Shown in pieces: positions 6,681 to 32,560 of a DNA stretch of 39,179 nt (position 1 is the first letter of the stretch; the number at the start of each line of letters is the position of its first letter). The notes under the pieces were generated by a model. It was not told the origin of the DNA, made no database searches, and saw only the letters and a program-made list of their open reading frames with translations. Source of the stretch: Escherichia phage 500465-1; sequence record NC_049342.1, one strand, 5' to 3'. A program made the translations under genes and the position numbers.

Positions 6681-6681
6681 A

Positions 6682-7720: not shown

Positions 7721-8439
7721 GCCGCCTGCTCCTTGTCAGTCTGGGCCATTCGCACATAAACAGCATTTTCCAGTCCTCTGCTGATAACTCTTTTTTCATG
7801 TCATTAAGCCATTCATCATCAAAGAGCGCGGCTCCGGTTGCGAGCGTTGCCCCGGATGCTGCAGCGTCATCAGCGGTAAAATCATGCTGGTTGTGCTGTT
7901 GCGGGCAATCAGCTTCTTGTATTCCCGCCATGCTTCCGGGCTGGGGCTTGGGTGGTGTAGTAGGTAGCGTGATAGCGCGCGTGCATGGACAGGCTTTTGG
8001 CGAGCGCAATCATATTTTTCGGGGAGTCCGCCCAGGCATACTCTGACACATAGACGTTTCCATGGAGCGCGGCGGCGAGACTTTTCGGCCCGATAAAATA
8101 AATGACCGCACCGTTAGGTAGTTCCAGATGCGCTTTACCTGATTTTATTTTCCCAAGGTGTGTCCAGGTTGCGGCCTGATCTATAAAGGCTGACATATAG
8201 GTTTTGACTGTCAGGGCGGATGCCGGGGTGCAGCCAAGAAAAATCTGGTTGCGTCCGGTATGCAGTGCATCGTTCAGGGCTTCGTAGGCGAAAAAGAAAT
8301 CCGCGCCAGCCTGATGCATTTTTGTAAGCACACGGTTTCTGCTGCGTGCGCCGCTGTTCCATTCATGCTGGTAAGCAAAGAAAGGGCGATCTACAGGCAG
8401 GCTGGCGGTGGTCATGAGGTTAGTTGGGGTTGAGTGCAT
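7707..8439 (-). pseudogene. Terminase-large-subunit-like paralog fragment between P and Q
   Basis: Two overlapping ORFs 7909..8439 and 7707..8009; FFFAYEALNDALHTGRNQIFL and LFDDEWLNDMKKELSAEDWKMLFMCEW parallel P residues about 135-400; ATG overlaps P stop (TGATG). Confidence 0.5.
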
Positions 8440-16223: not shown

Positions 16224-16802
16224 ATGAACGCACAATTAACCGAAATCATGCGCCTTATCACCAACCTGATCCGCACAGGGGTAGTCACCGAAGTGGACAG
16301 GGAAAACTGGCTTTGCCGGGTGAAAACGGGCGAGCTTGAAACCAACTGGATCAGCTGGCTGACGCTGCGTGCCGGGAATGCCCGTACATGGTGGCGACCA
16401 TCGGAAGGTGAGCAGGTGGTGCTGCTGAGTCTGGGCGGCAATCTGGAAACCGCCTTTGCGCTGCCCGCTGTCTATTCGAATCAGTTCGCACCACCGTCGA
16501 CGTCGGCGGACGCCTGCGTGACAGAACATCCTGACGGTGGCTGGTTTGAATACGAACCCGCCACCGGGCGCTGGTATGTCAGGGGCATCAAATCAATGGT
16601 CATTGAGGCTGCTGACAACATCACCATGAAAACCAGTGAGTTTGTACTGGAGGCTGACCGCACGCGCATTAACAGCGAAGTGGTGATCAATGGTGGCGTT
16701 ACCCAGGGCGGCGGAGCGATGAGTTCTAACGGGATCGTGGTTGATGCGCATCAGCATACTGGCGTCCTGAAAGGCGGCGATACAACCGGAGGCCCGGTAT
16801 GA
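16224..16802 (+). CDS. V: Baseplate spike protein, P2 gpV homolog
   Basis: 192 aa; NWISWLTLRAGNARTWWRPSEGEQVVLLSLGGNLETAFALPAVYS matches gpV. Confidence 0.85.
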   Translation: MNAQLTEIMRLITNLIRTGVVTEVDRENWLCRVKTGELETNWISWLTLRAGNARTWWRPSEGEQVVLLSLGGNLETAFALPAVYSNQFAPPSTSADACVTEHPDGGWFEYEPATGRWYVRGIKSMVIEAADNITMKTSEFVLEADRTRINSEVVINGGVTQGGGAMSSNGIVVDAHQHTGVLKGGDTTGGPV

Positions 16803-17158
16803 CGCTTTATAGCGGGATGAACAATACCAGCGGCAAAGTCATTACTGATATTGATCATCTGCGCCAGTCGGTGCGGGACATTCTGCTGACACCGCAGGGT
16901 AGCCGTATTGCCCGCCGGGAATATGGTTCCCTGCTGTCGGCACTGATAGATCAGCCACAAAATCCGGCATTACGCCTGCAGGTCATGTCGGCAGTGTATG
17001 TGGCGCTGAGTCGCTGGGAGCCACGGTTGACGCTGGATTCCATCACCATCAACAGCAATTTTGACGGTTCAATGGTGGTGGAGCTGACCGGGCGGCGGAA
17101 TAACGGTGTGCCTGTGTCCCTTTCCGTATCAACAGGAGCAGAGAATGGCATTGATTGA
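16799..17158 (+). CDS. W: Baseplate protein, P2 gpW homolog
   Basis: 119 aa; ITDIDHLRQSVRDILLTPQGSRIARREYGS matches gpW. Confidence 0.85.
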   Translation: MTLYSGMNNTSGKVITDIDHLRQSVRDILLTPQGSRIARREYGSLLSALIDQPQNPALRLQVMSAVYVALSRWEPRLTLDSITINSNFDGSMVVELTGRRNNGVPVSLSVSTGAENGID

Positions 17159-18053
17159 CCTTTCGCAGTTGCCTGCACCGCAGATTGTGGATGTGCCGGA
17201 CTTTGAGACGCTGCTTGCCGAACGCAAGGCAGAATTTGTGGCGCTTCATCCGAAAGATGAGCAGGAAGCAGTGATCCGCACGCTGGAACTGGAATCTGAA
17301 CCCGCCACTAAATTGTTGCAGGAGAACGCTTACCGTGAGTTGCTTCTGCGCCAGCGCATTAACGAAGCCGCGCAGGCGGTGATGGTGGCTTACGCGATGG
17401 GCGGCGATCTTGACCAGCTCGCTGCCAACTACAACGTGACACGCCTGACGGTGACGCCTGCTGATAATGATGCTGTGCCGCCCGTTGCAGCTGTGATGGA
17501 AAGCGATGAAGCGTTGCGCCTGCGTGTGCCTGCAGCCTTTGAAGGGCTTTCTGTTGCGGGGCCAACTGCAGCTTATGAATTTCATGCCCGAAGCGCCGAC
17601 GGTCGGGTGGCGGATGCCAGTGCAACCAGCCCGGCACCTGCAGAGGTGGTGCTGACTGTCCTTAGCCGCGAAGGCGATGGAACTGCAGAAAAAGACCTGC
17701 TGGACGTGGTGGAAAAAGCTCTGAACAGTGAGAACGTCCGCCCGGTGGCTGACCGTCTTACGGTTCGCAGCGCAGAAATCATCCCGTATCGCGTGGAAGC
17801 CACCATTTTTCTCTATCCTGGACCGGAAGCAGAGCCGGTAATGGCAGCGGCAAAAGCCAGCCTGCAGAAGTACATCGCCAGTCAGACGCGTCTTGGTCGG
17901 GATATTCGCCGTAGCGCCATCTTTGCCGCCCTGCATGTTGAGGGGGTGCAGCGTGTGGAGCTGGCTTCTCCTCTGGCGGATGTGGTCCTGAACAAAACAC
18001 AGGCGGCATCATGTACGCAGTGGAGCGTAACCAACGGAGGAACGGATGAATAG
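17145..18053 (+). CDS. J: Baseplate protein, P2 gpJ homolog
   Basis: ATG after AGGAGCAGAG; MALIDLSQLPAPQIVDVPDFETLLAERKAEF matches gpJ. Confidence 0.85.
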   Translation: MALIDLSQLPAPQIVDVPDFETLLAERKAEFVALHPKDEQEAVIRTLELESEPATKLLQENAYRELLLRQRINEAAQAVMVAYAMGGDLDQLAANYNVTRLTVTPADNDAVPPVAAVMESDEALRLRVPAAFEGLSVAGPTAAYEFHARSADGRVADASATSPAPAEVVLTVLSREGDGTAEKDLLDVVEKALNSENVRPVADRLTVRSAEIIPYRVEATIFLYPGPEAEPVMAAAKASLQKYIASQTRLGRDIRRSAIFAALHVEGVQRVELASPLADVVLNKTQAASCTQWSVTNGGTDE

Positions 18054-18651
18054 TCTGCTGCCACCGGGTTCAACACCACTGGAGCGCCGACTGGCGCAAA
18101 CCTGCAGCGGGATTTCTGATCTGCAGGTGCCGCTTCGTGATTTGTGGAATCCGGCAACCTGTCCGGTCAGTTTCCTGCCTTATCTCGCCTGGGCGTTCTC
18201 TGTGGATCGCTGGGACGAGGGCTGGACAGAAAGCGTCAAGCGCCAGGTGGTGAAGGATGCTTTTTATATTCATCAGCATAAAGGGACCACCAGTGCCGTG
18301 CGGCGGGTGGTGGAGCCGTTCGGATTCCTGATCCGCATTATTGAGTGGTGGCAGACCGGAGAAACACCGGGCACGTTTCGCCTGGATATCGGCGTGCAGG
18401 ACCAGGGCATCACTGAAGATACCTATCTGGAACTTGAGCGACTGATAAGCGATGCCAAACCATGTAGCCGCCACATGATCGGCATGTCCATCAATCTGCA
18501 GACCAGCGGCCCGCATTGGGTGGGAGCCGCCAGCTATCTTGGCGAAGAAATCACGATCTATCCGTATATCAACGAAACGATTATTTCCGGTGGCACCGCG
18601 CATGAAGGCGGGGCGGTCCATGTTATTGACACAATGAGAGTGAATCCATGA
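18046..18651 (+). CDS. I: Baseplate protein, P2 gpI homolog
   Basis: 201 aa; RRLAQTCSGISDLQVPLRDLWNPATCPVSFLPYLAWAFSVD matches gpI. Confidence 0.85.
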   Translation: MNSLLPPGSTPLERRLAQTCSGISDLQVPLRDLWNPATCPVSFLPYLAWAFSVDRWDEGWTESVKRQVVKDAFYIHQHKGTTSAVRRVVEPFGFLIRIIEWWQTGETPGTFRLDIGVQDQGITEDTYLELERLISDAKPCSRHMIGMSINLQTSGPHWVGAASYLGEEITIYPYINETIISGGTAHEGGAVHVIDTMRVNP

Positions 18652-20156
18652 GCACAAAATTTTATACCCTGCTGACGGATATTGGCGCGGCGAAACTTGC
18701 CAGCGCCGCCGCGCTCGGTGTGCCGCTAAAAATTACCCATATGGCGGTGGGCGATGGCGGTGGAGTATTGCCAACGCCGGACGCAAAGCAGACGGCACTG
18801 GTAAATGAGAAACGCCGGGCTGCGCTGAATATGCTTTATATCGACCCGCAGAACAGCAGCCAGATTATTGCCGAACAGGTGATCCCTGAAAACGAGGGCG
18901 GTTGGTGGATACGTGAAGTGGGCCTGTTTGATGAGTCAGGGGCATTGATTGCCGTGGGCAACTGCCCGGAAAGCTATAAGCCGCAACTGGCTGAAGGTAG
19001 CGGGCGCACTCAGACCGTGCGCATGGTGCTGATTACCAGCAGCACGGACAATATCACCCTGAAAATCGACCCTGCTGTAGTGCTGGCAACCCGCAAGTAT
19101 GTGGATGACAAGGCACTGGAGCTGAAGGTGTACGCGGATGATCAGATGGCAAAACATCTTGCCGCACCGGACCCGCATTCACAGTACGCGCCAAAAGCCA
19201 GCCCGACATTTACCGGAACCCCCAAAGCGCCAACGCCAGCGGCGGGGAATAATACCACGCAGGTTGCGACCACTGCGTTTGTACAGGCGGCACTGACGGC
19301 CCTTATTAATGGTGCGCCAGCCACGCTGGACACGCTGAAAGAAATAGCCGCAGCCATTAACAATGATCCGAATTTCAGTACCACCATTAACAATGCGCTG
19401 GCACTAAAAGCACCGTTGTCGAGTCCGGCACTCACCGGAACGCCAACAGCCCCCACGGCGGCGCAGTCGGTCAACAATACACAGATTGCCACTACGGCTT
19501 TTGTGAAATCGGCGATTGCAGGAATGGTGGGTTCTGCACCTGCTGCACTGGATACACTGAACGAACTGGCGGCGGCACTGGGGAATGATCCGAACTTTGC
19601 CACGACAATGCTTAATGCGCTGGCAGGTAAACAACCGCTGGACAATACGCTTACCAATTTGAGTGGAAAGGATGTAGCTGGTCTTCTCACATACCTTGGT
19701 TTGGGAGAAGGCTCTGCATTACCTGTTGGTGTCCCTGTTCCGTGGCCTTCAGCCACTCCGCCAACAGGCTGGCTGAAATGCAATGGTGCGGCTTTTTCTG
19801 CTGAAGAATACCCGGAACTGGCAAAAGTTTACCCGACAAATAAATTGCCTGATTTACGTGGTGAGTTTATTCGCGGCTGGGATGACGGAAGAGGAATTGA
19901 TACTAACCGTAGCTTGCTTTCATCACAGGGCGATGCCATTCGAAATATAATTGGTGCATTAGTGGATGTCAGGTTTAATACCTATCCTTCTGATTCTGGT
20001 GCTTTTACAACCAGCGTCATCGGAGATGCTTCATCTGATTCAATTAAAGGTGGTTATGCAAAGCGAGTAACATTTGATGCTTCCAGAGTTGTTCCAACTG
20101 CAAACGAAAACCGTCCGCGTAATATTGCATTTAACTATATCGTGAGGGCAGCCTGA
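18648..20156 (+). CDS. H: Tail fibre protein, P2 gpH homolog; C-terminal 153 aa lie inside the invertible segment
   Basis: Conserved N-terminus MSTKFYTLLTDIGAAKLA, internal repeats (TQVATTAFVQAAL / TQIATTAFVKSAI), C-terminal collar-like region; crossover site at 19684-19709 in frame. Confidence 0.85.
   Translation: MSTKFYTLLTDIGAAKLASAAALGVPLKITHMAVGDGGGVLPTPDAKQTALVNEKRRAALNMLYIDPQNSSQIIAEQVIPENEGGWWIREVGLFDESGALIAVGNCPESYKPQLAEGSGRTQTVRMVLITSSTDNITLKIDPAVVLATRKYVDDKALELKVYADDQMAKHLAAPDPHSQYAPKASPTFTGTPKAPTPAAGNNTTQVATTAFVQAALTALINGAPATLDTLKEIAAAINNDPNFSTTINNALALKAPLSSPALTGTPTAPTAAQSVNNTQIATTAFVKSAIAGMVGSAPAALDTLNELAAALGNDPNFATTMLNALAGKQPLDNTLTNLSGKDVAGLLTYLGLGEGSALPVGVPVPWPSATPPTGWLKCNGAAFSAEEYPELAKVYPTNKLPDLRGEFIRGWDDGRGIDTNRSLLSSQGDAIRNIIGALVDVRFNTYPSDSGAFTTSVIGDASSDSIKGGYAKRVTFDASRVVPTANENRPRNIAFNYIVRAA
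19684..19709 (+). repeat. DNA-invertase crossover site, left (gix/hix-like, 26 bp)
   Basis: TTCTCACATACC-TT-GGTTTGGGAGAA: two 12-bp half-sites around a 2-bp core. Confidence 0.6.
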
Positions 20157-20758
20157 TGCATAAAGCAATATTAAATAGTGAGCTTATTGCAACAAAGGCA
20201 GGGGATGTTACCGTTTATAACTACGATGGTGAAACACGGGAATATATTTCCACGTCAACTGAATATCTTGCTGTTGGTGTCGGTATTCCGGCATGTTCCT
20301 GTCTTGATGCACCTGGCATACATAAGGTTGGTTATGCTATCTGTCGTTCTGTGAATTTAAATTCATGGGAATATGTGCCAGATCATCGCGGTGAAATCGT
20401 CTATAGCACCGAAACAGGAGAATCGAAAGAAATCACAGCTCCGGGTGATTATCCTGAAAATACAACCACTATCGCCCCGTTAACGCCATACGATGAATGG
20501 AATGGTGAGAAATGGGTGACAGATACCGAGGCACAGCACGGCGCAGCAGTAGATGCAGCAGAAGCACAGCGCCCGTTGCTGATTGATACTGCAATGGCCT
20601 CCATCAGTCTGATTCAACTGAAATTACAGGCCGGACGGAAGCTGACGCAGGCAGAAACAATCCGCCTTAACGCTGTGCTGGATTACATTGACGCGGTGAC
20701 GGCAACAGATACCAGCACAGCGCCGGATGTCATCTGGCCTGAACTGCCGGAGGCGTAG
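20156..20758 (+). CDS. G: Tail fibre assembly chaperone (P2 gpG / Tfa homolog)
   Basis: 200 aa; C-terminus ...LDYIDAVTATDTSTAPDVIWPELPEA typical of Tfa. Confidence 0.8.
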   Translation: MHKAILNSELIATKAGDVTVYNYDGETREYISTSTEYLAVGVGIPACSCLDAPGIHKVGYAICRSVNLNSWEYVPDHRGEIVYSTETGESKEITAPGDYPENTTTIAPLTPYDEWNGEKWVTDTEAQHGAAVDAAEAQRPLLIDTAMASISLIQLKLQAGRKLTQAETIRLNAVLDYIDAVTATDTSTAPDVIWPELPEA

Positions 20759-21191
20759 GCCATTCAATATCTGGCGCACCGGAAGTATCGATCAGCTCCA
20801 GTGCGTCCAGATAATCCAGCCACAAATTATATTGTGCCAGTTCCTCACCTTTCAGACGACCGATAGCTGCTTTACCAGGCCATTGCTTACCGTTCATGTA
20901 TTCGTTGGCATGGTCAATTCTCGACTTTTTCTCTGAGTCAGCCGCAGCAAGTTGTTCTTTATGCGTAGGTGACGGAAGATCTACCCAGCAAGGCAACCCA
21001 TCATCACCAATGCCACGCATTTTACCCTCAGGAGCGTTTCCCATGAAAACCAGTGCATCTTCAGCATTTATATTGATGCCGTCTGACGGCCATGTGCCAG
21101 CAGTTAAATAATCATATTTCAGTGCCACAAGATAAAAAGCATTTTCCGTCGGGCTGAATACATAGTCGACCATTAATATCCCACTCCCCAT
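20730..21191 (-). CDS. Alternative tail fibre assembly chaperone (Tfa-prime), inverted orientation
   Basis: 153 aa; C-terminus ...LDYLDALELIDTSGAPDIEWPTPPAVQAR parallels the G C-terminus; converges on and overlaps G. Confidence 0.75.
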   Translation of the reverse strand: MGSGILMVDYVFSPTENAFYLVALKYDYLTAGTWPSDGININAEDALVFMGNAPEGKMRGIGDDGLPCWVDLPSPTHKEQLAAADSEKKSRIDHANEYMNGKQWPGKAAIGRLKGEELAQYNLWLDYLDALELIDTSGAPDIEWPTPPAVQAR

Positions 21192-21529
21192 ACTGCCACT
21201 GTTGAATTAGATTTCGTGTATGCGCAAGCGGCTTTGAATTTGACCCGGTCAACAATCGCTGCGCTAACAAAAGGGGCTCCATTAGTCGCGTAGATCACAG
21301 AATTGACCAGCGAAGGATTGATGGAAAGGCAAGCATTAGGAAAGGCAACCGGCCATGAGTCATCAACAACGACCATATTACCGTCGGTAGATTGCGGCAC
21401 TGATAGCGTCTTCCACTGAAGCAATGCTGTTCGTTGTACTCCACCAATTAATACTGGAATAGTGATGTTACCTGCACTGCTGGCTAATGCTGTCGCAGCA
21501 GGCATTTTCGCTGCTTCTCCCAAACCAAC
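21173..21529 (-). CDS. Alternative tail-fibre C-terminal segment (Sv-prime); joins H only after inversion
   Basis: Minus-strand frame reads ...VGLGEAAKMP..., in frame with the crossover core just as ...LGLGEG... is in H. Confidence 0.6.
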   Translation of the reverse strand, partial: VGLGEAAKMPAATALASSAGNITIPVLIGGVQRTALLQWKTLSVPQSTDGNMVVVDDSWPVAFPNACLSINPSLVNSVIYATNGAPFVSAAIVDRVKFKAACAYTKSNSTVAVWGVGY

Positions 21530-21540
21530 GTTTAAGAAAA
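21515..21540 (+). repeat. DNA-invertase crossover site, right (26 bp)
   Basis: TTCTCCCAAACC-AA-CGTTTAAGAAAA; the first 14 bp are the exact reverse complement of the inner part of the left site. Confidence 0.6.
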
Positions 21541-21595
21541 TGCAGAGGTAACAGCTAACTGGCATCATCTCCGGTTTTTATTCAGGGGGATGATC

Positions 21596-22162
21596 ATGCT
21601 TATTGGCTATGTACGCGTGTCAACAAATGACCAGAACACCGATTTGCAACGTAATGCACTGAACTGCGCGGGATGTGAGCAGATTTTTGAGGACAAAATC
21701 AGTGGCACTAAGTCCGACAGACCGGGGCTGAAAAAACTACTCAGGACACTATCGGCAGGAGACACGCTGGTTGTCTGGAAGCTGGACAGGTTGGGGCGCA
21801 GTATGCGGCATCTTGTTACGCTGATAGAAGAGTTGCGCCAGCGTGGTGTGAATTTCAGAAGCCTGACTGACAGTATTGATACCAGTACCCCAATGGGCCG
21901 TTTCTTTTTTCATGTCATGGGTGCCCTGGCTGAAATGGAACGCGAACTGATAGTTGAACGTACCAGGGCAGGGCTGGCTGCAGCTCGTGCCAAAGGCAGA
22001 GTAGGTGGACGCCGTCCTAAGTTGACCACCGAACAGTGGGCACAGATTGGGCGTTTACTCGAGGCCGGAGAATCAAGACAGCGTATTGCACTGATTTTTG
22101 ATGTAGGCGTTTCTACCATTTATAGAAAATTTCCGGCAAATAAGATCAATGAATCCCCCTGA
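21596..22162 (+). CDS. Serine DNA invertase (Gin/Hin/Pin/Cin family)
   Basis: MLIGYVRVSTNDQNTDLQRNAL...TLVVWKLDRLGRSM...GRFFFHVMGALAEMEREL almost matches Mu Gin. Confidence 0.9.
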   Translation: MLIGYVRVSTNDQNTDLQRNALNCAGCEQIFEDKISGTKSDRPGLKKLLRTLSAGDTLVVWKLDRLGRSMRHLVTLIEELRQRGVNFRSLTDSIDTSTPMGRFFFHVMGALAEMERELIVERTRAGLAAARAKGRVGGRRPKLTTEQWAQIGRLLEAGESRQRIALIFDVGVSTIYRKFPANKINESP

Positions 22163-22210
22163 ATCAGCATTATGTTGATTATCCCTGCAAGCAGACAAAT
22201 ACCGTTATTT

Positions 22211-22228
22211 TGTGTGAATAACGACACA
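22211..22228 (+). promoter_or_regulatory. Candidate Ogr/Delta activator site of the late promoter upstream of FI
   Basis: TGT-N12-ACA dyad (TGTGTGAATAACGACACA) about 77 bp upstream of FI. Confidence 0.4.
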
Positions 22229-22304
22229 ACTGCGCTTAGCTGTTTGTCAGGCACAATCACTTCAACATAGGGCGAAGCCTAATCCAATCAGGAGGTTCGC
22301 CACT

Positions 22305-23477
22305 ATGGCTCAGGATTACCACCACGGGGTGCACGTTGTTGAAGTCAACGAAGGCACCCGATCTATTACCACGGTGAGCACCGCCATCGTGGGTATGGTC
22401 TGCACGGGCGATGATGCCGATGCAAAAATGTTTCCTCTTAATAAACCCGTGCTGATCACTGATGTGCTGACTGCCAGCGGTAAAGCGGGTGAGTCAGGTA
22501 CTCTGGCCCGTTCGCTGGATGCCATCGCTGACCAGGCAAAACCCGTGACCATTGTTGTGCGTGTGCCGCAGGGTGAAACGGAAGACGAAACCACGACCAA
22601 TATCATCGGCGCAGTGACTGCTGAAGGTAAAAAAACAGGTATGAAAGCCCTGTTATCTGCCCAGTCACAGCTCGGCGTTAAACCGCGCATTCTCGGCGTG
22701 CCAGGCCACGACACCAAGGCGGTAGCTACTGAGTTGCTGAGCGTGGCGCAAAGCCTGCGTGGATTTGCTTACCTGTCAGCGTATGGCTGCAAGACAGTGC
22801 AGGAGGCGATCACTTACCGCGAAAACTTCAGCCAGCGCGAAGGGATGCTGATCTGGCCTGACTTTACTGGCTGGGACACGGTGCTGAATGCCGAAGCAAC
22901 GGCATATGCCACCGCCCGTGCGCTTGGTCTGCGCGCCAAAATTGACGAGCAGACCGGATGGCACAAAAGCCTGTCCAACGTGGGCGTGAACGGTGTCACC
23001 GGAATTTCTGCAGATGTGTTCTGGGATCTGCAGGACCCGGCAACCGATGCAGGTCTGCTGAACCAGAACGACGTCACCACGCTTGTGCGTAAAGACGGTT
23101 TCCGCTTCTGGGGTTCCCGCTGCCTGAGTGATGACCCGCTCTTTGCCTTCGAAAACTACACCCGCACGGCGCAGGTGCTGATGGACACGATGGCAGAAGC
23201 ACACATGTGGGCGGTGGATAAACCGCTTAACCCGTCGCTGGCCCGCGACATTATCGAAGGTATCCGCGCCAAAATGCGCAGCCTGGTCAGTCAGGGCTAT
23301 CTCATTGGTGGTGATTGCTGGCTGGATGAGTCGGTGAACGACAAAGACACGCTGAAAGCCGGAAAACTCACCATCGACTACGACTACACGCCAGTGCCGC
23401 CACTTGAAAACCTGATGCTGCGTCAGCGCATCACCGATCAGTACCTGGTGAATTTCGCCAGCCAGGTCAGCGCGTAA
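22305..23477 (+). CDS. FI: Tail sheath protein, P2 gpFI homolog
   Basis: [49 protein letters not shown] matches FI. Confidence 0.9.
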
Positions 23478-23486
23478 GGGGACAAC

Positions 23487-24002
23487 ATGGCTTTACCACG
23501 CAAATTAAAACACCTGAACCTGTTTAACGACGGGAACAACTGGCAGGGGATCGTTGAGTCGCTGACGCTGCCGAAATTTACCCGCAAATATGAGAAGTAT
23601 CGCGGCGGCGGAATGCCGGGTGCGGTGGATGTGGAGCTGGGGCTTGATGACAGTGCGCTGGACACAGAATTTTCCATTGGTGGTACTGAATTGCTGCTGT
23701 TTAAACAGATGGGTAAAGCCACGGTGGATGGCATCCAGCTGCGCTTTACCGGCTCTATTCAGCGTGACGATACCGGGGAAGTGCAGGCCGTGGAGCTTGT
23801 CGTGCGTGGACGTCACAAAGAAGTGGATTCCGGCGAGTGGAAGACGGGCGAAAGCAACACCACCAAAGTGACCAGTACCAACAGCTACGCGAAGCTGACC
23901 ATCAATGGTGAGGTGCTCTATGAAGTGGACCTTATCAACATGGTGGAAATTGTGGACGGTGTGGACCTGATGGAAGCGCACCGCAACGCCCTCGGCCTCT
24001 GA
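23487..24002 (+). CDS. FII: Tail tube protein, P2 gpFII homolog
   Basis: 171 aa in the FII position; RBS AAGGGG. Confidence 0.85.
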   Translation: MALPRKLKHLNLFNDGNNWQGIVESLTLPKFTRKYEKYRGGGMPGAVDVELGLDDSALDTEFSIGGTELLLFKQMGKATVDGIQLRFTGSIQRDDTGEVQAVELVVRGRHKEVDSGEWKTGESNTTKVTSTNSYAKLTINGEVLYEVDLINMVEIVDGVDLMEAHRNALGL

Positions 24003-24056
24003 TATATCTGAACGGCGCGGGATACCGCGCCAGAACCCAATTGACAGGACAGCAAA

Positions 24057-24359
24057 ATGAGCGATAAGCAGACTGAAAAGACCATTCAACTGGATACCCC
24101 CATCAAGCGCGGTAAAACAGAAATCACCGAAATTGTGCTGCGTAAACCGCAGTCCGGTGCGCTGCGCGGTACACGCCTGCAGGCCATTATGGATATGGAT
24201 GTAAACGCGATGATGACCGTGATCCCCCGCATCTCCAGTCCGGCACTGACTGCACAGGAAATTGCAGAGATGGACCCGGCAGATCTCACTGCCATGTCGG
24301 TTGAGGTTGTCACTTTTTTGTTGAAGAAGTCGGTGCTTGCCGGTTTACCGACAGCCTGA
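24057..24359 (+). CDS. E: Tail assembly chaperone, P2 gpE homolog
   Basis: 100 aa; slippery TTTTTTG near the 3' end. Confidence 0.8.
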   Translation: MSDKQTEKTIQLDTPIKRGKTEITEIVLRKPQSGALRGTRLQAIMDMDVNAMMTVIPRISSPALTAQEIAEMDPADLTAMSVEVVTFLLKKSVLAGLPTA

Positions 24360-24493
24360 CGGTTGACGATCTGGTGGCAGATATCGCCACCATTTTTCAC
24401 TGGCCGCCATCCGTTACTGACGTTATGCCGCTGACCGAAGTGCTGGAATGGCGGTATAAAGCGATTCAGAGAAGCGGGGCCAACGATGAGTGA
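24057..24493 (+). CDS. Tail assembly chaperone E+E' (programmed -1 frameshift product)
   Basis: -1 shift at TTTTTTG (24314-24320) gives ...ADIATIFHWPPSVTDVMPLTEVLEWRYKAIQRSGANDE, ending inside the T start. Confidence 0.65.
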
Positions 24494-27400
24494 TAACAAC
24501 CTGCGTCTGCAGGTCATTCTTAATGCGGTTGACAAGCTCACCCGCCCATTTCGATCTGCGCAGGCCAGTTCAAGAGAACTGGCTGCTGCTGTCAAAAAAT
24601 CCCGCGATGCAATAAAGCAGCTTGATCAGGCCGGGAGCAGTCTGGACAGCTTCCGAAAGCTGCAGGCAGAAAATCAGAAATTAGGCGACAGGCTGAACTA
24701 TGCCCGCCAGCGTGCAAATTTGCTCAGTCAGGAACTGGGAGCGATGGGGCCGCCTTCGCAACGTCAGGTTGTTGCTCTGGGCCGTCAACGGCTGGCTGTT
24801 CAGCGCCTGGAAGAACGCCAGAAAAAGCTGCAGCAGCAGACGGCGCTTGTGCGTGCTGAACTGTACCGGGCGGGAATTTCTGCGAAAGACGATGCGGGAG
24901 CAACTGCCCGTTTAGCCCGTGAAACATCACGTTATAACCAGGAACTTTCGAAACAGGAGGCGCGGCTGAAGCGACTGGGGGAAGCTCAGCGCAGGATGAA
25001 TGCAGCGCGTGCCAGTTATGCCCGTTCGCTGGAGGTGCGTGATCGTATTGCAGGTGCCGGAGCCACCACCACGGCTGCAGGGCTGGCAATGGGTGCGCCA
25101 GTGATGGCGGCAGTAAAAAGCTATACCAGCATGGAAGATGCCATGAAAGGTGTGGCAAAGCAGGTCAATGGTCTGCGTGACGATAATGGCAACCGCACTG
25201 CACGTTTTTATGAAATGCAGGATGCCATCAAGGCTGCCAGCGAACAGTTGCCGATGGAAAACGGTGCGGTGGACTTCGCTGCACTGGTTGAAGGTGGTGC
25301 GCGCATGAACGTCGCAAACCCTGACGACAGCTGGGAAGATCAGAAACGTGACCTGCTGGCCTTCGCCAGTACGGCAGCAAAGGCGGCAACAGCCTTTGAG
25401 CTGCCAGCGGATGAACTGTCAGAAAGTCTGGGGAAAATCGCCCAGCTCTACAAAATCCCCACCCGCAATATTGAACAGCTCGGTGATGCGCTGAACTATC
25501 TGGATGATAACGCCATGTCGAAAGGGGCAGACATCATTGATGTGATGCAACGTCTGGGCGGTGTGGCTGACCGTCTGGATTATCGTAAAGCGGCGGCGCT
25601 GGGTTCCACCTTCCTGACACTGGGCGCTGCGCCAGAGGTTGCAGCCAGTGCAGCAAACGCGATGGTGCGTGAATTGTCCATTGCCACCATGCAAAGCAAG
25701 AGTTTCTTTGAAGGGATGAATCTGCTGAAACTCAATCCTGAAGTGATTGAAAAGCAGATGACGAAGGATGCGATGGGAACCATCCAGCGCGTGCTGGAGA
25801 AGGTAAACGCGCTGCCGCAGGACAAGCGCCTGTCTGCCATGACTATGTTGTTTGGTAAAGAGTTTGGCGATGACGCGGCGAAACTGGCAAACAACCTGCC
25901 GGAACTGCAGCGTCAGTTAAAACTGACAGCGGGCAATGATGCGCTTGGCTCCATGCAGAAAGAATCCGACATTAACAAGGATTCACTTTCTGCGCAGTGG
26001 TTGCTGGTCAAAACCGGAGCGCAGAACACCTTCAGCAGCCTGGGCGAAACGCTGCGCCAGCCGCTGATGGATATTCTGTACACGGTGAAAAGCGTCACGG
26101 GGGCGTTGCGTCGCTGGGTGGAAGCTAACCCGGAACTGACAGGCACACTGATGAAAGCATCGGCTGTTGTGGCTGCGGTTACCGTCGGCCTCGGCACCTT
26201 AGCGGTGGCGCTGGCTGCAGTGCTGGGGCCGCTGGCAGTGATCCGTCTGGGATTCTCTGTGTTGGGTATCAAAACGTTATCTTCCGTTACGGCAGCAGTA
26301 ACTCGAACCAGCAGCGCGTTGTCCTGGCTGGCTGGCGCACCACTGGCACTGCTGCGACGCGGGCTTGCTTCATCGGGCAACGCCGCAGGTTTACTTACTG
26401 CGCCGTTGTCGTCTTTGCGCCGCACGGCATCACTGACGGGAAATGTCCTGAAAACTGTAGCAGGTGCGCCGGTTGCACTTTTGCGGTCTGGATTATCCGG
26501 TTTACGTGCTGTTGCTGTGATGTTTATGAATCCTCTGGCGGTACTGCGCGGTGGACTGGCCGCCGCAGGCACGGTGCTGCGAGTACTGGCATCTGGTCCA
26601 CTGGCGATGCTGCGCGTTGCCCTGTATGCCATATCTGGTCTGTTAGGTGCTCTGCTCAGTCCGATAGGTCTTGTGGTTACTGCACTGGCGGGCGTGGCGC
26701 TGGTTGTCTGGAAATACTGGCAACCCATCACCGCATTTCTCGGTGGCGTGGTGGAAGGATTCAAAGCGGCGGCAGGTCCCATCAGTGCAGCGTTCGAACC
26801 GCTTAAGCCCGTGTTCCAGTGGATTGGCGACAAAGTGCAGGCGCTGTGGGGCTGGTTTACTGATCTGCTGACGCCCGTTAAGTCGACCTCTGCCGAACTG
26901 CAGAGCGCAGCGGCAATGGGGCGGCGATTCGGGGAGGCACTGGCGGAAGGGCTGAATATGGTCATGCATCCGCTGGACTCCCTGAAATCCGGCGTTTCCT
27001 GGTTGCTGGAGAAGCTCGGCATTGTCAGTAAAGAGGCCGCAAAGGCAAAACTGCCGGAAAGCGTGACGCGTCAGCAACCTGCGACGGTGAATGCAGACGG
27101 TAAAGTGATGATGCCATCGGGTGGTTTTCCATCATGGGGATATGGCTTTGCGGGGATGTATGACAGCGGCGGGTATATCCCGCGCGGGCAGTTTGGCATC
27201 GTCGGTGAAAACGGGCCGGAAATTGTTAACGGCCCGGCAAATGTGACCAGCCGGAGAAATACAGCTGCACTGGCTGCCGTTGTTGCCGGAATGATGGGCG
27301 TTGCTGCCGCGCCAGCAGAGCTTCCACCGTTGCACCCCTTGGCACTTCCCGCGAAAGGTGGAGAAGCAATTGTGAGTCGCGCAGCCACTGTGCCACTCGT

Positions 27401-28045: not shown

Positions 28046-29142
28046 ATTTCAGCTCTGAACTGCTTAACAAAGGCAACAAAACTCCCGCATTCAGCATCAG
28101 TATTGAGGGCAGGGATATCACCACTGTGCTGGATAACCGCCTGATGAGTTTGACGCTGACGGATAACCGGGGCTTTGAAGCGGACCAGCTTGATCTGGAG
28201 CTGGATGACGCTGACGGAAAAATCGTGCTGCCGCGCCGTGGTGCGGTTATTACGCTGGCGCTGGGCTGGAAGGGGCAGCCGCTTTTCCCGAAAGGGGCAT
28301 TCACAGTGGACGAGATTGAACACACTGGCGCACCGGACCGCCTGACTATCCGGGCGCGAAGTGCTGATTTTCGGGAAACGCTGAATACCCGCCGTGAAAA
28401 ATCGTGGCATAAGACCACCGTCGGGGAAGTGGTGAAGGAAATAGCCGCGCGGCACAAGCTGAAGATGGCCCTGGGTAAAGACCTGTCGGATAAGCCCGTG
28501 GAGCATATAGACCAGACTAATGAGAGTGACGGCAGTTTTCTGATGCGGCTGGCGCGACAGTACGGTGCCATCGCGTCGGTGAAAAATGGCAATCTGTTAT
28601 TCATCCGGCAGGGGCAGGGCAAAAGCGCCACTGGTAAACCTCTGCCAGTGATCACTATCACACGCAAGGACGGCGACAGTCACCGATTTACCCTGGCAGA
28701 TCGCGGAGCCTACACGGGCGTAATTGCCAGCTGGTTGCATACCCGCGAACCTGCGAAGAAAGAAAGCACCACGGTGAAGCGTAAGCGCAGAACTAAGAAG
28801 CAGAAGAAAGAGCCGGAAGCGAAGCAGGGCGATTACCTGGTGGGTACGGATGAAAACGTGCTGGTACTTAATCGCACTTATGCCAACCGGAGCAACGCTG
28901 AACGGGCAGCGAAAATGCAGTGGGAACGCCTGCAACGCGGCGTTGCGTCATTCTCGCTACAACTGGCGGAAGGGCGGGCAGATCTTTACACGGAAATGCC
29001 AGTGAAAGTTAGTGGCTTTAAACAACCGATAGATGATGCGGAATGGACCATTACGACTCTGACTCATACCGTCAGCCCGGATAATGGTTTTACGACCAGT
29101 ATTGAACTCGAAGTGAAGATTGATGATCTTGAAATGGAATAA
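28042..29142 (+). CDS. D: Tail protein / late control protein, P2 gpD homolog
   Basis: 366 aa in the gpD position; GTG start. Confidence 0.8.
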   Translation: MNFSSELLNKGNKTPAFSISIEGRDITTVLDNRLMSLTLTDNRGFEADQLDLELDDADGKIVLPRRGAVITLALGWKGQPLFPKGAFTVDEIEHTGAPDRLTIRARSADFRETLNTRREKSWHKTTVGEVVKEIAARHKLKMALGKDLSDKPVEHIDQTNESDGSFLMRLARQYGAIASVKNGNLLFIRQGQGKSATGKPLPVITITRKDGDSHRFTLADRGAYTGVIASWLHTREPAKKESTTVKRKRRTKKQKKEPEAKQGDYLVGTDENVLVLNRTYANRSNAERAAKMQWERLQRGVASFSLQLAEGRADLYTEMPVKVSGFKQPIDDAEWTITTLTHTVSPDNGFTTSIELEVKIDDLEME

Positions 29143-29210
29143 AGTGTTCTCAATATTGATATTTTGTGTATCATTACAATGATGCTGATAGCAAAAGTAG
29201 GGATCTGGAT

Positions 29211-29429
29211 ATGATGAATTGTCCAAAGTGTGGTCATGCGGCACACACAAGGAGCAGTTTTCAAGTAACTGAAAGCACCAAAGAGCGTTACTGCCAGTGC
29301 CAAAATATTAACTGCGGGAGCACTTTTGTTACCCATGAAACAGTGGTCCGGTTTATTGTGACACCCGCACTGATTGCTACTGCTCCTCCACATCCATTGC
29401 CAGGTGGTCAGGGGCATATGAATTTTTGA
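29211..29429 (+). CDS. ogr: Late-gene transcriptional activator Ogr (zinc finger)
   Basis: MMNCPKCGHAAHTRSS...KERYCQCQNINCGSTFVTHETVVRFIV...PHPLPGGQ matches P2 Ogr. Confidence 0.85.
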   Translation: MMNCPKCGHAAHTRSSFQVTESTKERYCQCQNINCGSTFVTHETVVRFIVTPALIATAPPHPLPGGQGHMNF

Positions 29430-29436
29430 GAAAGAG

Positions 29437-29460
29437 AACCTGCTACGGCAGGTTTTTATT
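29437..29460. terminator. Rho-independent terminator between ogr and the convergent WYL/BRCT gene
   Basis: AACCTGC-TACG-GCAGGTT followed by TTTATT. Confidence 0.55.
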
Positions 29461-29938
29461 CATCTGGGATCTCACCCGTTTCAAGAAAATGTATAAAGCC
29501 AGGCTCATCTATGATGATTGTGCCTTTCATCCTGGCTGCCGATACTTTTGATGGGCCTGCATTGTAACCGCAACAGAGCATCTGAAGGCTTTGGGTTACA
29601 GAGGTTCTTACCGTTAATCCTTGTTCATTCGCCTTATCAACCAATCTTTCTTTATCTGCTTTTTTAAATCCGGTGAAACACACATCGAATGTATTTTTTT
29701 TCGGACCAGACTGCTTAGTGAGATGTGAGTATTTTTCGGGGAGGAATGACGCGCATTCCTGAATGGCTTGTTCTGGTGAATCGTACTGTTTAAGAATGCG
29801 GTCTTTTCGGAAGGTTTTTATTCGATCGGTGTTCTTACAAATGCCCTGTATATGATTTTCGCTATAACTGATGCTCTGTATTGAGTGAACTCCGATACGA
29901 CCATTTGCATTGATGTAAACAAAGTGAAGTTCTTCCAT
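29456..29938 (-). CDS. Small WYL-like plus BRCT-like domain protein (160 aa), function unknown
   Basis: RBS AAGAGG; N-terminal half with TFRKDRI motif (WYL-like), C-terminal half VCFTGF...GTIIIDEPGFIHF (BRCT-like). Confidence 0.6.
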   Translation of the reverse strand: MEELHFVYINANGRIGVHSIQSISYSENHIQGICKNTDRIKTFRKDRILKQYDSPEQAIQECASFLPEKYSHLTKQSGPKKNTFDVCFTGFKKADKERLVDKANEQGLTVRTSVTQSLQMLCCGYNAGPSKVSAARMKGTIIIDEPGFIHFLETGEIPDE

Positions 29939-30020
29939 GTGAAACCTCTTTGCATGATTTCAAGAGGGCGACAGGCAAGATAGACGCAAAAGTCTGTCGC
30001 CATTTTGCCGCCACTACCAA

Positions 30021-30052
30021 AGAAAAAGGGGCTACGCTTTCACGTAACCCCT
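30021..30052 (-). terminator. Rho-independent terminator downstream of ssrA
   Basis: On the minus strand AAGGGGTTACG-loop-CGTAGCCCCTT followed by a T-run. Confidence 0.45.
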
Positions 30053-30061
30053 TGTTTTATT

Positions 30062-30424
30062 TGGTGGAGCTGGCGGGAGTTGAACCCGCGTCCGAAATTC
30101 CTACATCCTCGGTACTACATGCTTAGTCAGTCTTTACATTCGCTTGCCAGCTGCGGACGGACACGCCACTAACAAACTAGCCTGATTAAGTTTTAACGCT
30201 TCAACCCCAGGCAGGGCTTCCACGCGATCTCTTTTGGGTTTGACCTCTCTTGATCCCCGTCCTAAGAGCGGAGGCTAGGGAGAGAGGGCTCTAAGCAGGT
30301 TATTAAGCTGCTAAAGCGTAGTTTTCGTCGTTTGCGACTATTTTTTGCGGCTTTTTACGAGGCCAACCGCCCCTCGGCATGCACCTTGGGTTTCGCAAAT
30401 CCCGTCGAATCCAGAATCAGCCCC
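30062..30424 (-). ncRNA. ssrA: tmRNA (SsrA)
   Basis: Reverse complement reads GGGGCTGATTCTGGATTCGACGGG...GGGTTCAACTCCCGCCAGCTCCACCA, the E. coli tmRNA. Confidence 0.95.
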
Positions 30425-30638
30425 AATGTGTAAAGGTAAGTATACCAGATTTATGAGCGCCATGACCAGCCTCAATGGCGTTATCGTTAAAGATTTAGCA
30501 CCCATGTAGCCTGATTTTTATTCGATTAAGCAATGGGATGGCAACATTTGTGTCGGATGTGATAGCCAATAAGATGTTCATTCGCGCCGCCGGAGAGGGA
30601 GGCGCGGTGAGGAACTGGTCAATAATTGGAGTGCAGGT

Positions 30639-31121
30639 TTAACGGTGGGCGTTTTTCATGATACGTGCTTTATCCACCTGCCATTCGCGTTCTTTGATAT
30701 CTGAACGTTTATCGTGCTGTTTTTTACCTTTGGCGACGCCGATTTTCACTTTGCACCAGGCATTTTTCCAGTACAGGGAGAGCGCCACTACGGTATAGCC
30801 TTCTCGATTGACGCGACCGTACAATGAGTCCAGTTCGCGCTGGTTGAGAAGTAACTTGCGGGTACGGGTAGGATCGCACACCACATGCGTGGAGGCCACG
30901 GCCATTGGCGTGATGTTAGCGCCAAACAGAAATGCCTCTCCGTCACGCAGAAGGACGTAGCTGTCGCTGATATTGGCTTTTCCTGCGCGCAGGGATTTAA
31001 CCTCCCAGCCTTGCAGGGCAAGTCCCGCTTCGAACTCTTCTTCGATAAAGTATTCGTGACGGGCGCGCTTGTTAAGCGCGATGGTCGCTGAACCAGGTTT
31101 ATGTGCTTTTTTCTTCGTCAT
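30639..31121 (-). CDS. smpB: SsrA-binding protein SmpB
   Basis: 160 aa, near-identical to E. coli SmpB. Confidence 0.95.
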
Positions 31122-31252
31122 AAGCGTCGTGAATCATCGGTAATCTGAAATCGAAAACACCCCATATCAATCCTGCGGGGGACAAGGCTCTATCTTAGCA
31201 TGAACCCGATGTTACCCAGCGCCGGGATAGCGTTTTTTTTACAGCAGGATAA

Positions 31253-31729
31253 ATGATATTATTCGTTGGATTTTTGTTGATGGAAATTGTTATGCCTCAG
31301 ATTAGCCGGACCGCACTGGTACCCTACAGCGCGGAGCAAATGTATCAGTTAGTGAATGACGTTCAGTCTTATCCTCAGTTTTTGCCGGGTTGTACCGGAA
31401 GTCGGATTCTGGAGTCCACTCCTGGTCAGATGACTGCGGCGGTAGATGTCTCTAAGGCTGGGATCAGCAAAACGTTTACTACCCGCAACCAGTTGACCAG
31501 TAACCAAAGTATTCTTATGAATCTGGTGGATGGGCCGTTCAAGAAATTGATTGGTGGATGGAAGTTTACGCCGCTGAGCCAGGAGGCGTGTCGTATCGAG
31601 TTTCATCTCGACTTTGAGTTTACCAATAAGTTGATTGAACTCGCCTTTGGTCGCGTGTTTAAAGAGCTGGCGTCTAATATGGTCCAGGCTTTTACGGTTC
31701 GTGCGAAAGAGGTTTACAGTGCCAGGTAA
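31253..31729 (+). CDS. ratA: Ribosome association toxin RatA (YfjG)
   Basis: 158 aa matching E. coli RatA/YfjG. Confidence 0.85.
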
Positions 31730-32009
31730 AATTGCCGTTGAGGTGGCTTATGCGCTACCTGAGAAGCAGTACCTGCAGCGCGTGACGCTGCAGGAGGGCG
31801 CGACGGTTGAAGAAGCTATTCGCGCCAGTGGCTTGCTGGAATTGCGTACCGATATCGATTTAACTAAAAACAAAGTCGGCATTTACAGCCGTCCGGCAAA
31901 ACTAAGCGATAGTGTGCATGATGGCGATCGGGTGGAGATTTATCGCCCTCTCATTGCCGATCCGAAAGAGCTTCGCAGGCAACGAGCAGAAAAATCAGCG
32001 AATAAATAA
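31719..32009 (+). CDS. ratB: RnfH-family protein RatB (YfjF)
   Basis: GTG start overlapping the ratA end; [25 protein letters not shown]... Confidence 0.75.
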
Positions 32010-32021
32010 CAGACAGAAAAA

Positions 32022-32046
32022 AGGTGCTCATTGAGCACCTTTTTTA
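32022..32046. terminator. Bidirectional Rho-independent terminator between ratB and bamE
   Basis: AGGTGCTCA-T-TGAGCACCT followed by TTTTTT. Confidence 0.55.
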
Positions 32047-32070
32047 ACGTCTTTGAGAGCAACTTTATTA

Positions 32071-32412
32071 TTAGTTACCACTCAGCGCAGGTTTGTTATC
32101 AATATTGGTCAACACACCGCTACTGTTAAAGGTCAGCGTCAGCGTTTGCTGCGTTACACCTTCATGACCTGGTTGCTGGCGGAAGACATAGAACCAGGTA
32201 TTCGTACCAAATGGATCGGACATCAGCGGTGTACCCAATGCGTACGCAACTTGTTGTTGCGTCATGCCAACACGTATTTTGGATACGTCGTTAGCGGTCA
32301 GATAGTTCCCCTGGTTGATGTCAGGACGGTAAACCACTCGCTCCAGAGTGGAACAGCCTGCGGTCAACATCAATAGTACTGCTGCTGCAGCAGTCAGCGT
32401 TTTACAGCGCAT
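32071..32412 (-). CDS. bamE: Outer membrane protein assembly factor BamE (SmpA)
   Basis: 113 aa with lipobox LTAGC, matches E. coli BamE. Confidence 0.9.
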
Positions 32413-32560
32413 AGTGATTTGATTCCTTTTCGGGCCCGAGCAGTACGTGGCTCATCTGTAATATGCCGATGATAATAGACCTTTCATCACTTTAAAACCT
32501 TTTGCTTTCCGGTCTTACGGCGTTTTGCTGTTTACTCTGACCGTGAAGCAGGAAAAAAGT

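Follow-up and report, generated by a model that had tools for sequence, protein, structure and literature searches.

The DNA between the tail-fibre gene H and the tail sheath gene FI of this Escherichia prophage raises the question of whether it holds a switch that exchanges one fibre tip for another, and whether such a switch still operates. The window, by which we mean the whole 39,179-nucleotide stretch analysed, carries a serine invertase gene beside a segment that codes on both strands, which the original prediction had read as a complete tail-fibre inversion switch. All parts of the switch are present and intact, H stays in frame in both orientations, and both isomers occur in nature with breakpoints at the crossover sites. 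Taken by its sequence, the locus is very probably a complete and functional site-specific inversion switch of the Pin type (Gin/Hin/Cin/Pin, 'Din' family), serving the tail fibre of an ssrA-integrated E. coli P2-like prophage. The switch is evidently active, and a tail-fibre flip-switch is of an ordinary known kind, close relatives having already been described with one.

Crossover sites and exchangeable fibre ends

Inspection of the sequence confirms two 26-bp crossover sites, in inverted orientation, at the positions where they had been predicted (Table 1). In each, a non-palindromic 2-bp core separates two imperfect 12-bp half-sites, and the cores are mutually inverted, reading TT at the left site and AA at the right site on the plus strand. 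Aligned in inverted register, the sites agree at 21 of 26 positions. The exactly inverted identity claimed for them is present, but at 15 bp (TTGGTTTGGGAGAAG) it is longer by one base pair than the 14 bp originally given. The window was scored with a half-site matrix derived only from the sequenced sites of e14, Mu and P1 together with Hin hix half-sites. Because the next best score in the whole 39-kb window was only 11.9 bits, compared with 26.8 and 26.1 bits for the two sites, we count exactly two sites and no third. Neither this matrix nor a motif search with mismatches revealed a third, shufflon-type crossover site in the window, and a shufflon such as that of the four-variant P2 locus of enteropathogenic E. 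coli (EPEC) was rejected on this ground.

Table 1. Coordinates of the switch components and of the adjoining late-operon features in the window.
Feature	Coordinates	Strand	Sequence or basis
Constant N-terminal part of tail-fibre gene H, outside the segment, including the baseplate-attachment domain	18648..19695	+	PF12571 Phage_tail_fib
Left crossover site (pixL-like)	19684..19709	+	TTCTCACATACC-TT-GGTTTGGGAGAA; core 19696-19697; 26.1 bits
Invertible segment, core to core 1,833 bp	19696..21528	.	Window with exactly this interval reverse-complemented equals the second 503440 prophage copy over 8,905 bases
Variable H C-terminus A, StfE-like, currently expressed, tail-collar domain	19698..20156	+	PF07484 Collar, E=1e-14; 58% to e14 StfE
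Chaperone A, TfaE-like tail-fibre assembly, 200 aa	20156..20758	+	PF02413 Caudo_TAP, E=4e-30; 91% to e14 TfaE over 200 aa
Chaperone B, TfaP-like tail-fibre assembly, 147 aa, currently silent	20730..21173	-	PF02413, E=6e-29; 50% to e14 TfaP
Variable H C-terminus B, StfP-like, gp53-like C-terminal region, currently silent	21173..21526	-	46% to e14 StfP
Right crossover site (pixR-like)	21515..21540	+	TTCTCCCAAACC-AA-CGTTTAAGAAAA; core 21527-21528; 26.8 bits
Serine DNA invertase, Pin/Cin/Gin/Hin family, 188 aa	21596..22162	+	Pfam, PDB, identity to PinE, Cin and Gin
Presumed Fis-dependent recombinational enhancer in the invertase gene (nt 19-90)	21614..21685	+	Homology to the enhancer annotated in P1
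TGT-N12-ACA dyad, Ogr/Delta-type activator site of late promoter pF upstream of FI	22211..22228	+	TGTGTGAATAACGACACA
Tail sheath gene FI, first gene of the next late operon; context, outside the switch	22305..23477	+	ORF; RefSeq annotation of identical sequence

The constant part of H is identical between both orientation isomers. Its N-terminus matches Pfam PF12571 over residues 1-150 (E=6e-65) and is 50% identical to residues 1-364 of P2 H. The left site lies inside the H coding frame with its inner half encoding L-G-L-G-E, so a flip would join this N-terminus to alternative C-termini. The predicted pair of cassettes, each with a C-terminus and a tfa gene and one per strand, is borne out by the open reading frames and Pfam domains, where the two Caudo_TAP proteins, one on each strand, each overlap the stop codon of their own fibre part. 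An overlapping TGATG couples translation of the chaperone A gene to that of H, and the 3' end of the chaperone A gene overlaps that of the chaperone B gene, an open reading frame also annotated by RefSeq, by 29 bp. C-terminus B reaches 24.0 bits against Pfam PF21882, just under the 24.9 cut-off, and in the inverted copy RefSeq places it within a full-length 'phage tail protein'; NCBIfam returned no specific model for the fibre parts.

H stays in frame when the segment is inverted in silico, as had been claimed, and its length changes from 502 aa to 467 aa with residues 1-349 in common. The junction reads ...LTYLGLGEGSALP... in the 502-aa protein versus ...LTYLGLGEAAKMP... in the 467-aa protein. 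C-termini A and B are unrelated in sequence, the one having a Collar domain and the other being gp53-like, which would fit recognition of different receptors, and inversion might be expected to switch host range as originally proposed.

Both orientations in public genomes

The original prediction had suggested a search for both orientations, and public genomes do carry the exact inversion product beside the uninverted form at 100% identity. E. coli 503440 (NZ_CP025881) contains two tandem prophage copies, where the first has the orientation of the window and the second is inverted. The window inverted in silico matches this second copy at 8,905 of 8,905 bases. The breakpoints fall inside the 15-bp identity, with the left one mapping within 19696-19710. 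The tandem copies could represent the assembler's resolution of a mixed population instead of a true duplication, and even if the pair is such an artefact, both orientations would have been present in the reads. A speculative reading takes the tandem copies in opposite orientation as a real arrangement, which would place both fibre types in one cell at once.

Clonal isolates also differ in orientation (SW071611 versus SW071619 and SW07163; 1504D004 versus 1604D011); within each set, genome lengths are the same or nearly so and the coordinates of the locus coincide. Each orientation is matched by ten genomes at a coverage of at least 80%. Of the related IMG/VR loci, 17 have the TfaE-like cassette and the invertase on one strand and 23 have them on opposite strands, and seven IMG/VR contigs end no more than 64 nt from a crossover site.

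These distributions bear on whether the segment is a frozen relic that no longer inverts, with the database orientations being old, vertically inherited states. Such a reading draws on the defective appearance of the prophage, which has IS100 in gene A, and on the many cryptic prophages that retain dead modules. It fits poorly with isomers at 100% identity in one genome and with differences between matched isolates, since together these mean that orientation changes must be very recent. Moreover, e14 and the EPEC remnants are likewise defective prophages and flip actively. Phase variation of the P2-like remnant of EPEC E2348/69 was demonstrated experimentally (Goldberg et al. 2014, PMC4272514), where sequencing gave 51% forward for e14 and 93% forward for the EPEC P2-like locus (main text and Table S1), and the authors state that PCR confirmed the result for e14 and for the second EPEC P2 locus, which has four variants. 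We regard a frozen relic as very improbable.

A segment that does invert might do so by general RecA-dependent homologous recombination between its inverted repeats. Efficient RecA-mediated exchange usually needs roughly 25 bp, and exact identity here amounts to only 15 bp. The repeats also coincide with canonical 26-bp Din sites and adjoin a cognate invertase, and the two orientations are about equally frequent, which implies high rates. Host machinery can recombine inverted repeats, a possibility discussed in the background of PMC4272514, but for this locus we find such a route scarcely credible and retain site-specific inversion.

The invertase and its control

Assignment of the gene beside the right site to the Gin/Hin family of serine invertases is upheld by its intact open reading frame, its domains and its relatives. 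Pfam returns Resolvase (PF00239, 2e-53) and HTH_7 (PF02796, 1e-15), with sub-threshold matches only from NCBIfam. Comparison with the Gin structures 3UJ3 and 4M6F gives E=3e-93, versus 8e-34 for gamma-delta resolvase, and the protein is 87%, 78% and 75% identical to PinE, Cin and Gin, respectively. Ser9 lies within a YVRVSTNDQ motif, and Arg42 is also present. Enhancer-dependent invertases are told apart from resolvases by Hin residues Lys47, Arg/Lys48, Lys/Arg51, Gln151, Arg154 and Leu155 (PMC3798978). All of these distinguishing residues are present in the window invertase, as Lys46, Lys47, Arg50, Gln150, Arg153 and Leu154 in a numbering equal to that of Hin minus one. A 12-bp perfect inverted repeat that brackets the open reading frame was considered as an extra element and dismissed as chance, where about one such pair is expected per 6 kb and e14 lacks it.

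Near its 5' end the invertase gene contains a stretch that can be aligned, gap-free, to the P1 enhancer annotation (cin nt 19-90, NC_005856). Identity across this stretch is 78% to P1 and 88% to e14, compared with 72% and 81% elsewhere in the gene. Among seven invertase genes, synonymous-codon identity is 0.60 in the stretch versus 0.49. We presume that the stretch functions as a Fis-dependent enhancer; the excess in synonymous conservation is only modest and does not fix the exact Fis cores.

Inspection for expression signals revealed no convincing sigma-70 promoter or terminator for the invertase, where match counts were no different from those in shuffled sequence. This observation touches a reading in which the switch is real but another prophage of the lysogen supplies, in trans, the related invertase that flips it, with the local gene, which has no clear promoter upstream, being silent or dispensable. 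Din-family invertases cross-complement. An instance is Fin of Fels-2, which acts on hix according to the work listed as reference 43 of PMC4272514. The query region matches six places in NZ_CP025881, which indicates several related modules per cell, so flipping could be catalysed in trans from those other loci. The local invertase is nonetheless intact, with all catalytic and Fis-contact residues and with 96-100% nucleotide identity across dozens of relatives, and we judge catalysis in trans unlikely to be the explanation. It would in any case be compatible with activity in cis, and it concerns the catalyst alone rather than the identity of the element.

A related question is whether flipping responds to the phage growth cycle. 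The overlapping convergent tfa genes and the lack of a convincing terminator before the co-oriented invertase mean that late read-through might occur. It seems improbable to us that Ogr-dependent late transcription passes through the silent cassettes into the invertase and raises flipping specifically in lytic growth, and we know of no description of such coupling for Mu, P1 or e14.

For the preferred reading, an invertase acting at its own two sites, the Hin/Gin paradigm suggests how a flip would proceed, and we infer from it a dependence on Fis and the enhancer. Invertase dimers would bind the two 26-bp sites, which the Fis-bound enhancer at the 5' end of the invertase gene would gather into an invertasome on supercoiled DNA. 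Acting through Ser9, the complex would cut all four strands at the 2-bp core, one subunit pair would rotate by 180 degrees, and religation of the ends would leave the 1,833 bp between the cores flipped. Each flip would fuse constant H residues 1-349 to either of two unrelated receptor-binding C-terminal parts, each followed by a chaperone of its own (TfaE-like after the StfE-like part, TfaP-like after the StfP-like part), and a lysate would contain mixed particles with two adsorption specificities.

Place in the late region and relation to known switches

RefSeq annotation of identical sequence gives a late region in the order V-W-J-I-H-G ... FI-FII-E-T-U-D-ogr with P2-type proteins, as expected of P2-like phages (Peduoviridae). 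Around the switch, the window reads H-tfa-(silent cassettes)-invertase-(TGT-N12-ACA dyad)-FI, compared with H-G-terminator-fun(Z)-pF-FI in P2, where the V and F operons have the same gene order as in the window. P2 has a fixed single H C-terminus with its G chaperone, and fun(Z) stands where the window holds the silent cassettes and the invertase. The module is flanked by the fibre-assembly gene and the late promoter of FI, matching the P2 map and the Z/fun position originally proposed for it. The TGT-N12-ACA dyad, whose consensus we take from general knowledge of P2 late promoters, forms the right border of the slot. From the centre of the dyad to the FI start is about 86 bp, compared with about 83 bp for the activator site annotated in P2. 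A nucleotide alignment of the pre-FI spacer with P2 pF gave no useful information, the dyad being the only shared feature. A preprint has already described invertases in the Z/fun hotspot of P2-like phages (10.1101/2024.10.15.618418).

IS100 is inserted in replication gene A of this prophage copy, because of which the copy may make no particles at all. Fibre expression, and hence the host-range consequence, may never be realised from it.

The annotation lists the parts separately, as a 'recombinase family protein', a 'hypothetical protein' and a truncated 'phage tail protein', with the switch unrecognised. Because annotations treat the locus in this manner, which full-length fibre is called depends on the assembled orientation. 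The switch also leads to assembly breaks and possibly to spurious tandem duplications, and prediction or engineering of host range in P2-like phages and tailocins should count both receptor-binding cassettes. Beyond correct annotation it matters little, as a textbook bet-hedging device that provides two adsorption specificities from one prophage.

The G segment with Gin in Mu and the C segment with Cin in P1 follow the same logic, with a constant Sc outside and Sv/U and Sv'/U' cassettes inside. Their invertases are 75-78% identical to that of the window, and the 26-bp site architecture is common to all. The core of the right site lies 68 bp upstream of the invertase start codon, compared with a spacing of 66 bp in Mu, and the presumed enhancer occupies the position in the gene annotated in P1. 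The core is TT/AA in the window, e14 and P1 cixL, as it is in Hin hix, versus TC/GA in gix. The segment is shorter (1.8 kb, compared with about 3 kb in Mu and about 4.2 kb in P1), and the P1 invertase lies on the opposite side of its segment. It had been suggested that the C-termini and chaperones be compared with those of Mu, P1 and e14, and relatives were detected in e14 alone. BLASTP at E<=1e-3 found no similarity of the cassettes to the S, U, H or G proteins of Mu, P1 and P2, including none of C-terminus A to the C-termini of Mu S or P2 H, and a relationship to that group was rejected in favour of e14 relatives.

The P2-like remnant of EPEC E2348/69 is placed as in the window, immediately upstream of the sheath gene in a P2-type tail operon. 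Its right site is identical to that of the window over 26 bp and its left site has the same inner half, while its TfaE-like cassette shares 90% nucleotide identity and its segment measures 1.89 kb versus 1.83 kb. In contrast, its invertase shares only about 75% nucleotide identity, and it lacks the constant part of H that the window retains. EPEC has a further P2 locus, with three repeats and four states, whereas the window contains just two sites.

Judged by sequence identity, the closest relative of the module is the Pin invertase and P segment of e14 (stfP-tfaP/tfaE-stfE, pinE) in E. coli K-12, rather than Mu or P1. The layout is the same, with a constant fibre part, a site, two convergent cassettes, a site and an invertase, and the tfa genes of e14 likewise overlap by 29 bp. 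In culture the e14 segment flips to about 50:50. Both sites agree with those of e14 over their inner 14 bp, and over the whole right site pixR differs by one base. Identity is 87% for PinE and 91% for TfaE, compared with 58% for StfE, 46% for StfP and 50% for TfaP, such that the receptor-binding C-termini have diverged substantially (46-58%). The fibre gene of e14, a cryptic lambdoid element, is truncated, whereas the window has a full-length P2-type H, and its module lies within an otherwise complete P2-type late region.

Crossover sites and the fibre reading frame

The best inverted repeat within 6 kb is the pair of 26-bp sites named in the original prediction of a tail-fibre switch. Their positions hold, and the exact identity is 15 bp where 14 bp had been predicted; in inverted register the left and right sites agree at 21 of 26 positions. 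A half-site matrix built only from sites outside the window (e14, Mu and P1 from sequence, plus Hin hix half-sites) scores the two at 26.8 and 26.1 bits, whereas no other position in the 39 kb exceeds 11.9, a gap that places the sites far beyond chance and their number at exactly two. The two junction sequences expected of the switch are TTCTCACATACCTTGGTTTGGGAGAAGGC and TTCTCACATACCTTGGTTTGGGAGAAGCA. The crossover sites of e14 share the inner 14 bp with those of the window, and the e14 right site is a single base apart from its counterpart here.

Features of the inversion module and its surroundings
Feature	Position	Strand	Detail
Gene A	~1-4340		split by IS100
Cargo gene	~5215-6650		between gene A and portal gene
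H	18648-20156		
Left site	19684-19709		TTCTCACATACC TT GGTTTGGGAGAA
Inverted segment	19696-21528		core to core
tfa	20156-20758		
Convergent tfa	20730-21173	minus	
Chaperone gene overlap	20730-20758		29 bp
Fibre C-terminus	21173-21526	minus	
131-aa ORF	21173-21568	minus	start MMPVSCYLCIFLNVGLGE...
Right site	21515-21540		TTCTCCCAAACC AA CGTTTAAGAAAA
12-bp repeat, left arm	21580-21591		ATTCAGGGGGAT
Invertase gene	21596-22162		
Enhancer-aligned stretch	21614-21685		
12-bp repeat, right arm	22153-22164		ATCCCCCTGAAT
Dyad	22211-22228		TGT-N12-ACA
FI	22305-		
tmRNA	30062-30424	minus	tag ANDENYALAA

For in silico inversion, the sequence was cut at the 2-bp cores and the segment between them reverse-complemented. 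In the present orientation H encodes 502 aa (...LTYLGLGEGSALP...), and after inversion the frame is still open and encodes 467 aa (...LTYLGLGEAAKMP...), confirming that H is kept in frame both ways. The peptide common to both versions, L-G-L-G-E, comes from the core and inner half-site, and each fibre C-terminus has a stop codon overlapping the ATG of the chaperone gene that belongs to it (TGATG or TAATG). At its N-terminus H has a fibre N-terminal domain of P2 type, 50% identical to P2 H. The expressed C-terminus has a tail-collar domain, the silent one on the minus strand resembles gp53-like C-termini with a score slightly below the Pfam cut-off, and both chaperones are Caudo_TAP proteins. 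Mu, P1 and e14 had been put forward as comparators for the variable parts; e14 proved related, its P-segment genes being 91% (TfaE), 58% (StfE), 50% (TfaP) and 46% (StfP) identical, whereas no resemblance was found to Mu, P1 or P2 S, U, H and G.

The convergent chaperone genes overlap by 29 bp at their 3' ends, so that one piece of DNA encodes a C-terminal peptide on each strand; e14 tfaP and tfaE overlap by the same length. The silent cassette can also be read as an ORF of 131 aa that starts at an ATG beyond the right crossover site. RefSeq lists this ORF as a hypothetical protein; in all likelihood the switch gave rise to it as a by-product of annotation, as with the stfE 'pseudogene' of K-12.

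The invertase and its predicted enhancer

The recombinase contains resolvase catalytic and HTH_7 domains, matches Mu Gin crystal structures over 184 residues (E=3e-93) and retains the nucleophile Ser9, in agreement with its predicted membership of the Gin/Hin family of serine invertases. Its identity is 87% with e14 PinE, 78% with P1 Cin and 75% with Mu Gin. Hin residues K47, R/K48, K/R51, Q151, R154 and L155 are conserved only in Fis/enhancer-dependent invertases (McLean et al., PMC3798978), and all of their equivalents (K46, K47, R50, Q150, R153 and L154) are kept here.

The P1 reference record places the Cin enhancer at cin nt 19-90, with which the window gene aligns ungapped. Over these nucleotides identity is 78% to P1 cin and 88% to e14 pinE, versus 72% and 81%, respectively, over the remaining gene. 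Across seven invertase genes, synonymous-codon identity is 0.60 in this stretch versus 0.49 elsewhere, with a peak in the first 36 nt. Such extra conservation is as expected for an embedded cis element, though the excess is modest, and homology points to a putative enhancer that would function as in P1. The right core lies ~90-120 bp from this stretch, a spacing comparable to the ~100 bp that separate hixL from the Hin enhancer (PMC4513852). The invertase ORF is also flanked by an inverted repeat with perfect 12-bp arms, the left arm holding the ribosome-binding site and the right arm the stop codon; we do not regard it as a meaningful element, since chance alone should yield about one pair of this kind per 6 kb and e14 lacks it.

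By homology with Hin and Gin, invertase dimers would bind the two sites and Fis the intragenic enhancer, with an invertasome assembling on supercoiled DNA. Ser9 would then cleave at the TT/AA cores, and one subunit pair would rotate by 180 degrees before the ends are religated. The predicted outcome is fusion of the other C-terminus to the constant part of H, with its matching chaperone placed under the late promoter and, presumably, a change in host range.

Both orientations in public genomes

Inspection of public genomes revealed both orientations, as the original prediction had anticipated. Window positions 19400-22304 match E. coli 503440 (NZ_CP025881) at 100% identity, and the in silico inverted version finds a 100% match in the same chromosome, 35,991 bp off, in the second of two tandem prophage copies. 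Over 16400-25304 the uninverted window equals the first copy, and with the segment inverted it equals the second at 8,905 of 8,905 bases. This identity between isomers contradicts a frozen relic whose segment no longer inverts. The breakpoints lie inside the 15-bp identity, as expected of exchange at the core; inversion by RecA is unlikely given that the identity spans just 15 bp and that a cognate invertase adjoins the repeats. Catalysis in trans by a related invertase in the same genome is possible, there being 6 related places in NZ_CP025881, and would leave the nature of the element unchanged.

The tandem copies (NZ_CP025881.1 2443554-2505449) carry opposite fibre-segment orientations, and IS100 lies in gene A of both. 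The duplication may be genuine, or it may be an artefact that arose when a mixed population was assembled. In either case, true repeat or mixed reads that the assembler resolved into two copies, the 503440 culture contained both orientations.

Orientation is the sole difference at the locus between SW071611 and both SW071619 and SW07163, and between 1504D004 and 1604D011; the isolates compared have genomes equal or nearly equal in length and carry the locus at identical coordinates. Each orientation is matched by ten genomes at coverage of at least 80%. Exactly two sites stand upstream of the invertase gene in 54 of 80 related IMG/VR loci, and an exact-match scan of these loci places the start of the proximal site 81 bp before that gene. 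The TfaE-like cassette lies on the invertase strand in 17 and on the opposite strand in 23. Seven IMG/VR contigs (L031, L033, L037, L041, L047, L052 and L055) stop at most 64 nt from a crossover site, as assemblies usually do at a segment that flips. L037 and L052, two of the seven, also contain additional sites, with constant H sequence on the other strand. Such features are typical of mis-assemblies or breaks at a segment carried in both orientations in the sample.

Prophage setting and relation to known switches

The window contains a P2-like prophage's right 30 kb, integrated at the ssrA 3' end. The match to the tandem-copy record stops at 30106, within the tmRNA gene, and 30107-39179 is core E. 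coli chromosome (smpB, ratA, bamE, recN, nadK, grpE, yfjD, ffh side). The late region runs V, W, J, I, H, tfa, convergent tfa, minus-strand fibre C-terminus, recombinase gene and FI, compared with H-G-terminator-fun(Z)-pF-FI in phage P2. A dyad precedes FI by ~86 bp here and by ~83 bp in P2, so the silent cassettes and invertase fill exactly the fun(Z) slot, the position that had been proposed for the module.

The window departs from copy 1 of NZ_CP025881 by 28 single-base indels and one substitution, confined to 1134-7950 and 28162-30075, with zero differences between 7951 and 28161. The indels shorten the portal ORF (301 aa versus 346 aa in copy 1) and break the IS100 genes, and look like consensus error of a long-read assembly rather than biology. 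The affected stretch includes a cargo gene in the P2 old/tin hotspot, annotated as a SEFIR-domain protein in the near-identical RefSeq copy and, in the second copy, as a TIR-domain protein. This candidate defence gene is apparently frameshifted in the window.

The P2-type replication gene A is split by IS100 (IS21-family), judged by collinearity at 99.9% identity with the annotated near-identical copy (L001, 547-4921), and the prophage is probably replication-defective. P2 late genes require replication, so neither fibre may ever be expressed from this copy. The switch may flip idly here, like those of e14 and the remnant in enteropathogenic strain (EPEC) E2348/69.

Phase variation of e14, with the repeat AAACCTTGGTTTGGGAGAAGG and at 51% forward, was found by deep sequencing with PCR confirmation (Goldberg et al. 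2014, PMC4272514). The same study found by sequencing that two P2-like prophage loci of EPEC E2348/69 phase-vary, and it mentions PCR for the one with four variants (PMC4272514). The EPEC locus at 2977580-2979467 directly precedes a sheath gene of P2 type; all 26 bp of its right site agree with the right site of the window, the left sites have the inner half in common, and the TfaE-like cassettes are 90% identical. The original prediction is correct in both observation and interpretation, with one refinement: by sequence comparison the nearest relative is not Mu or P1 but e14 Pin with its P segment. As a phage switch the element is ordinary and of an already described kind.
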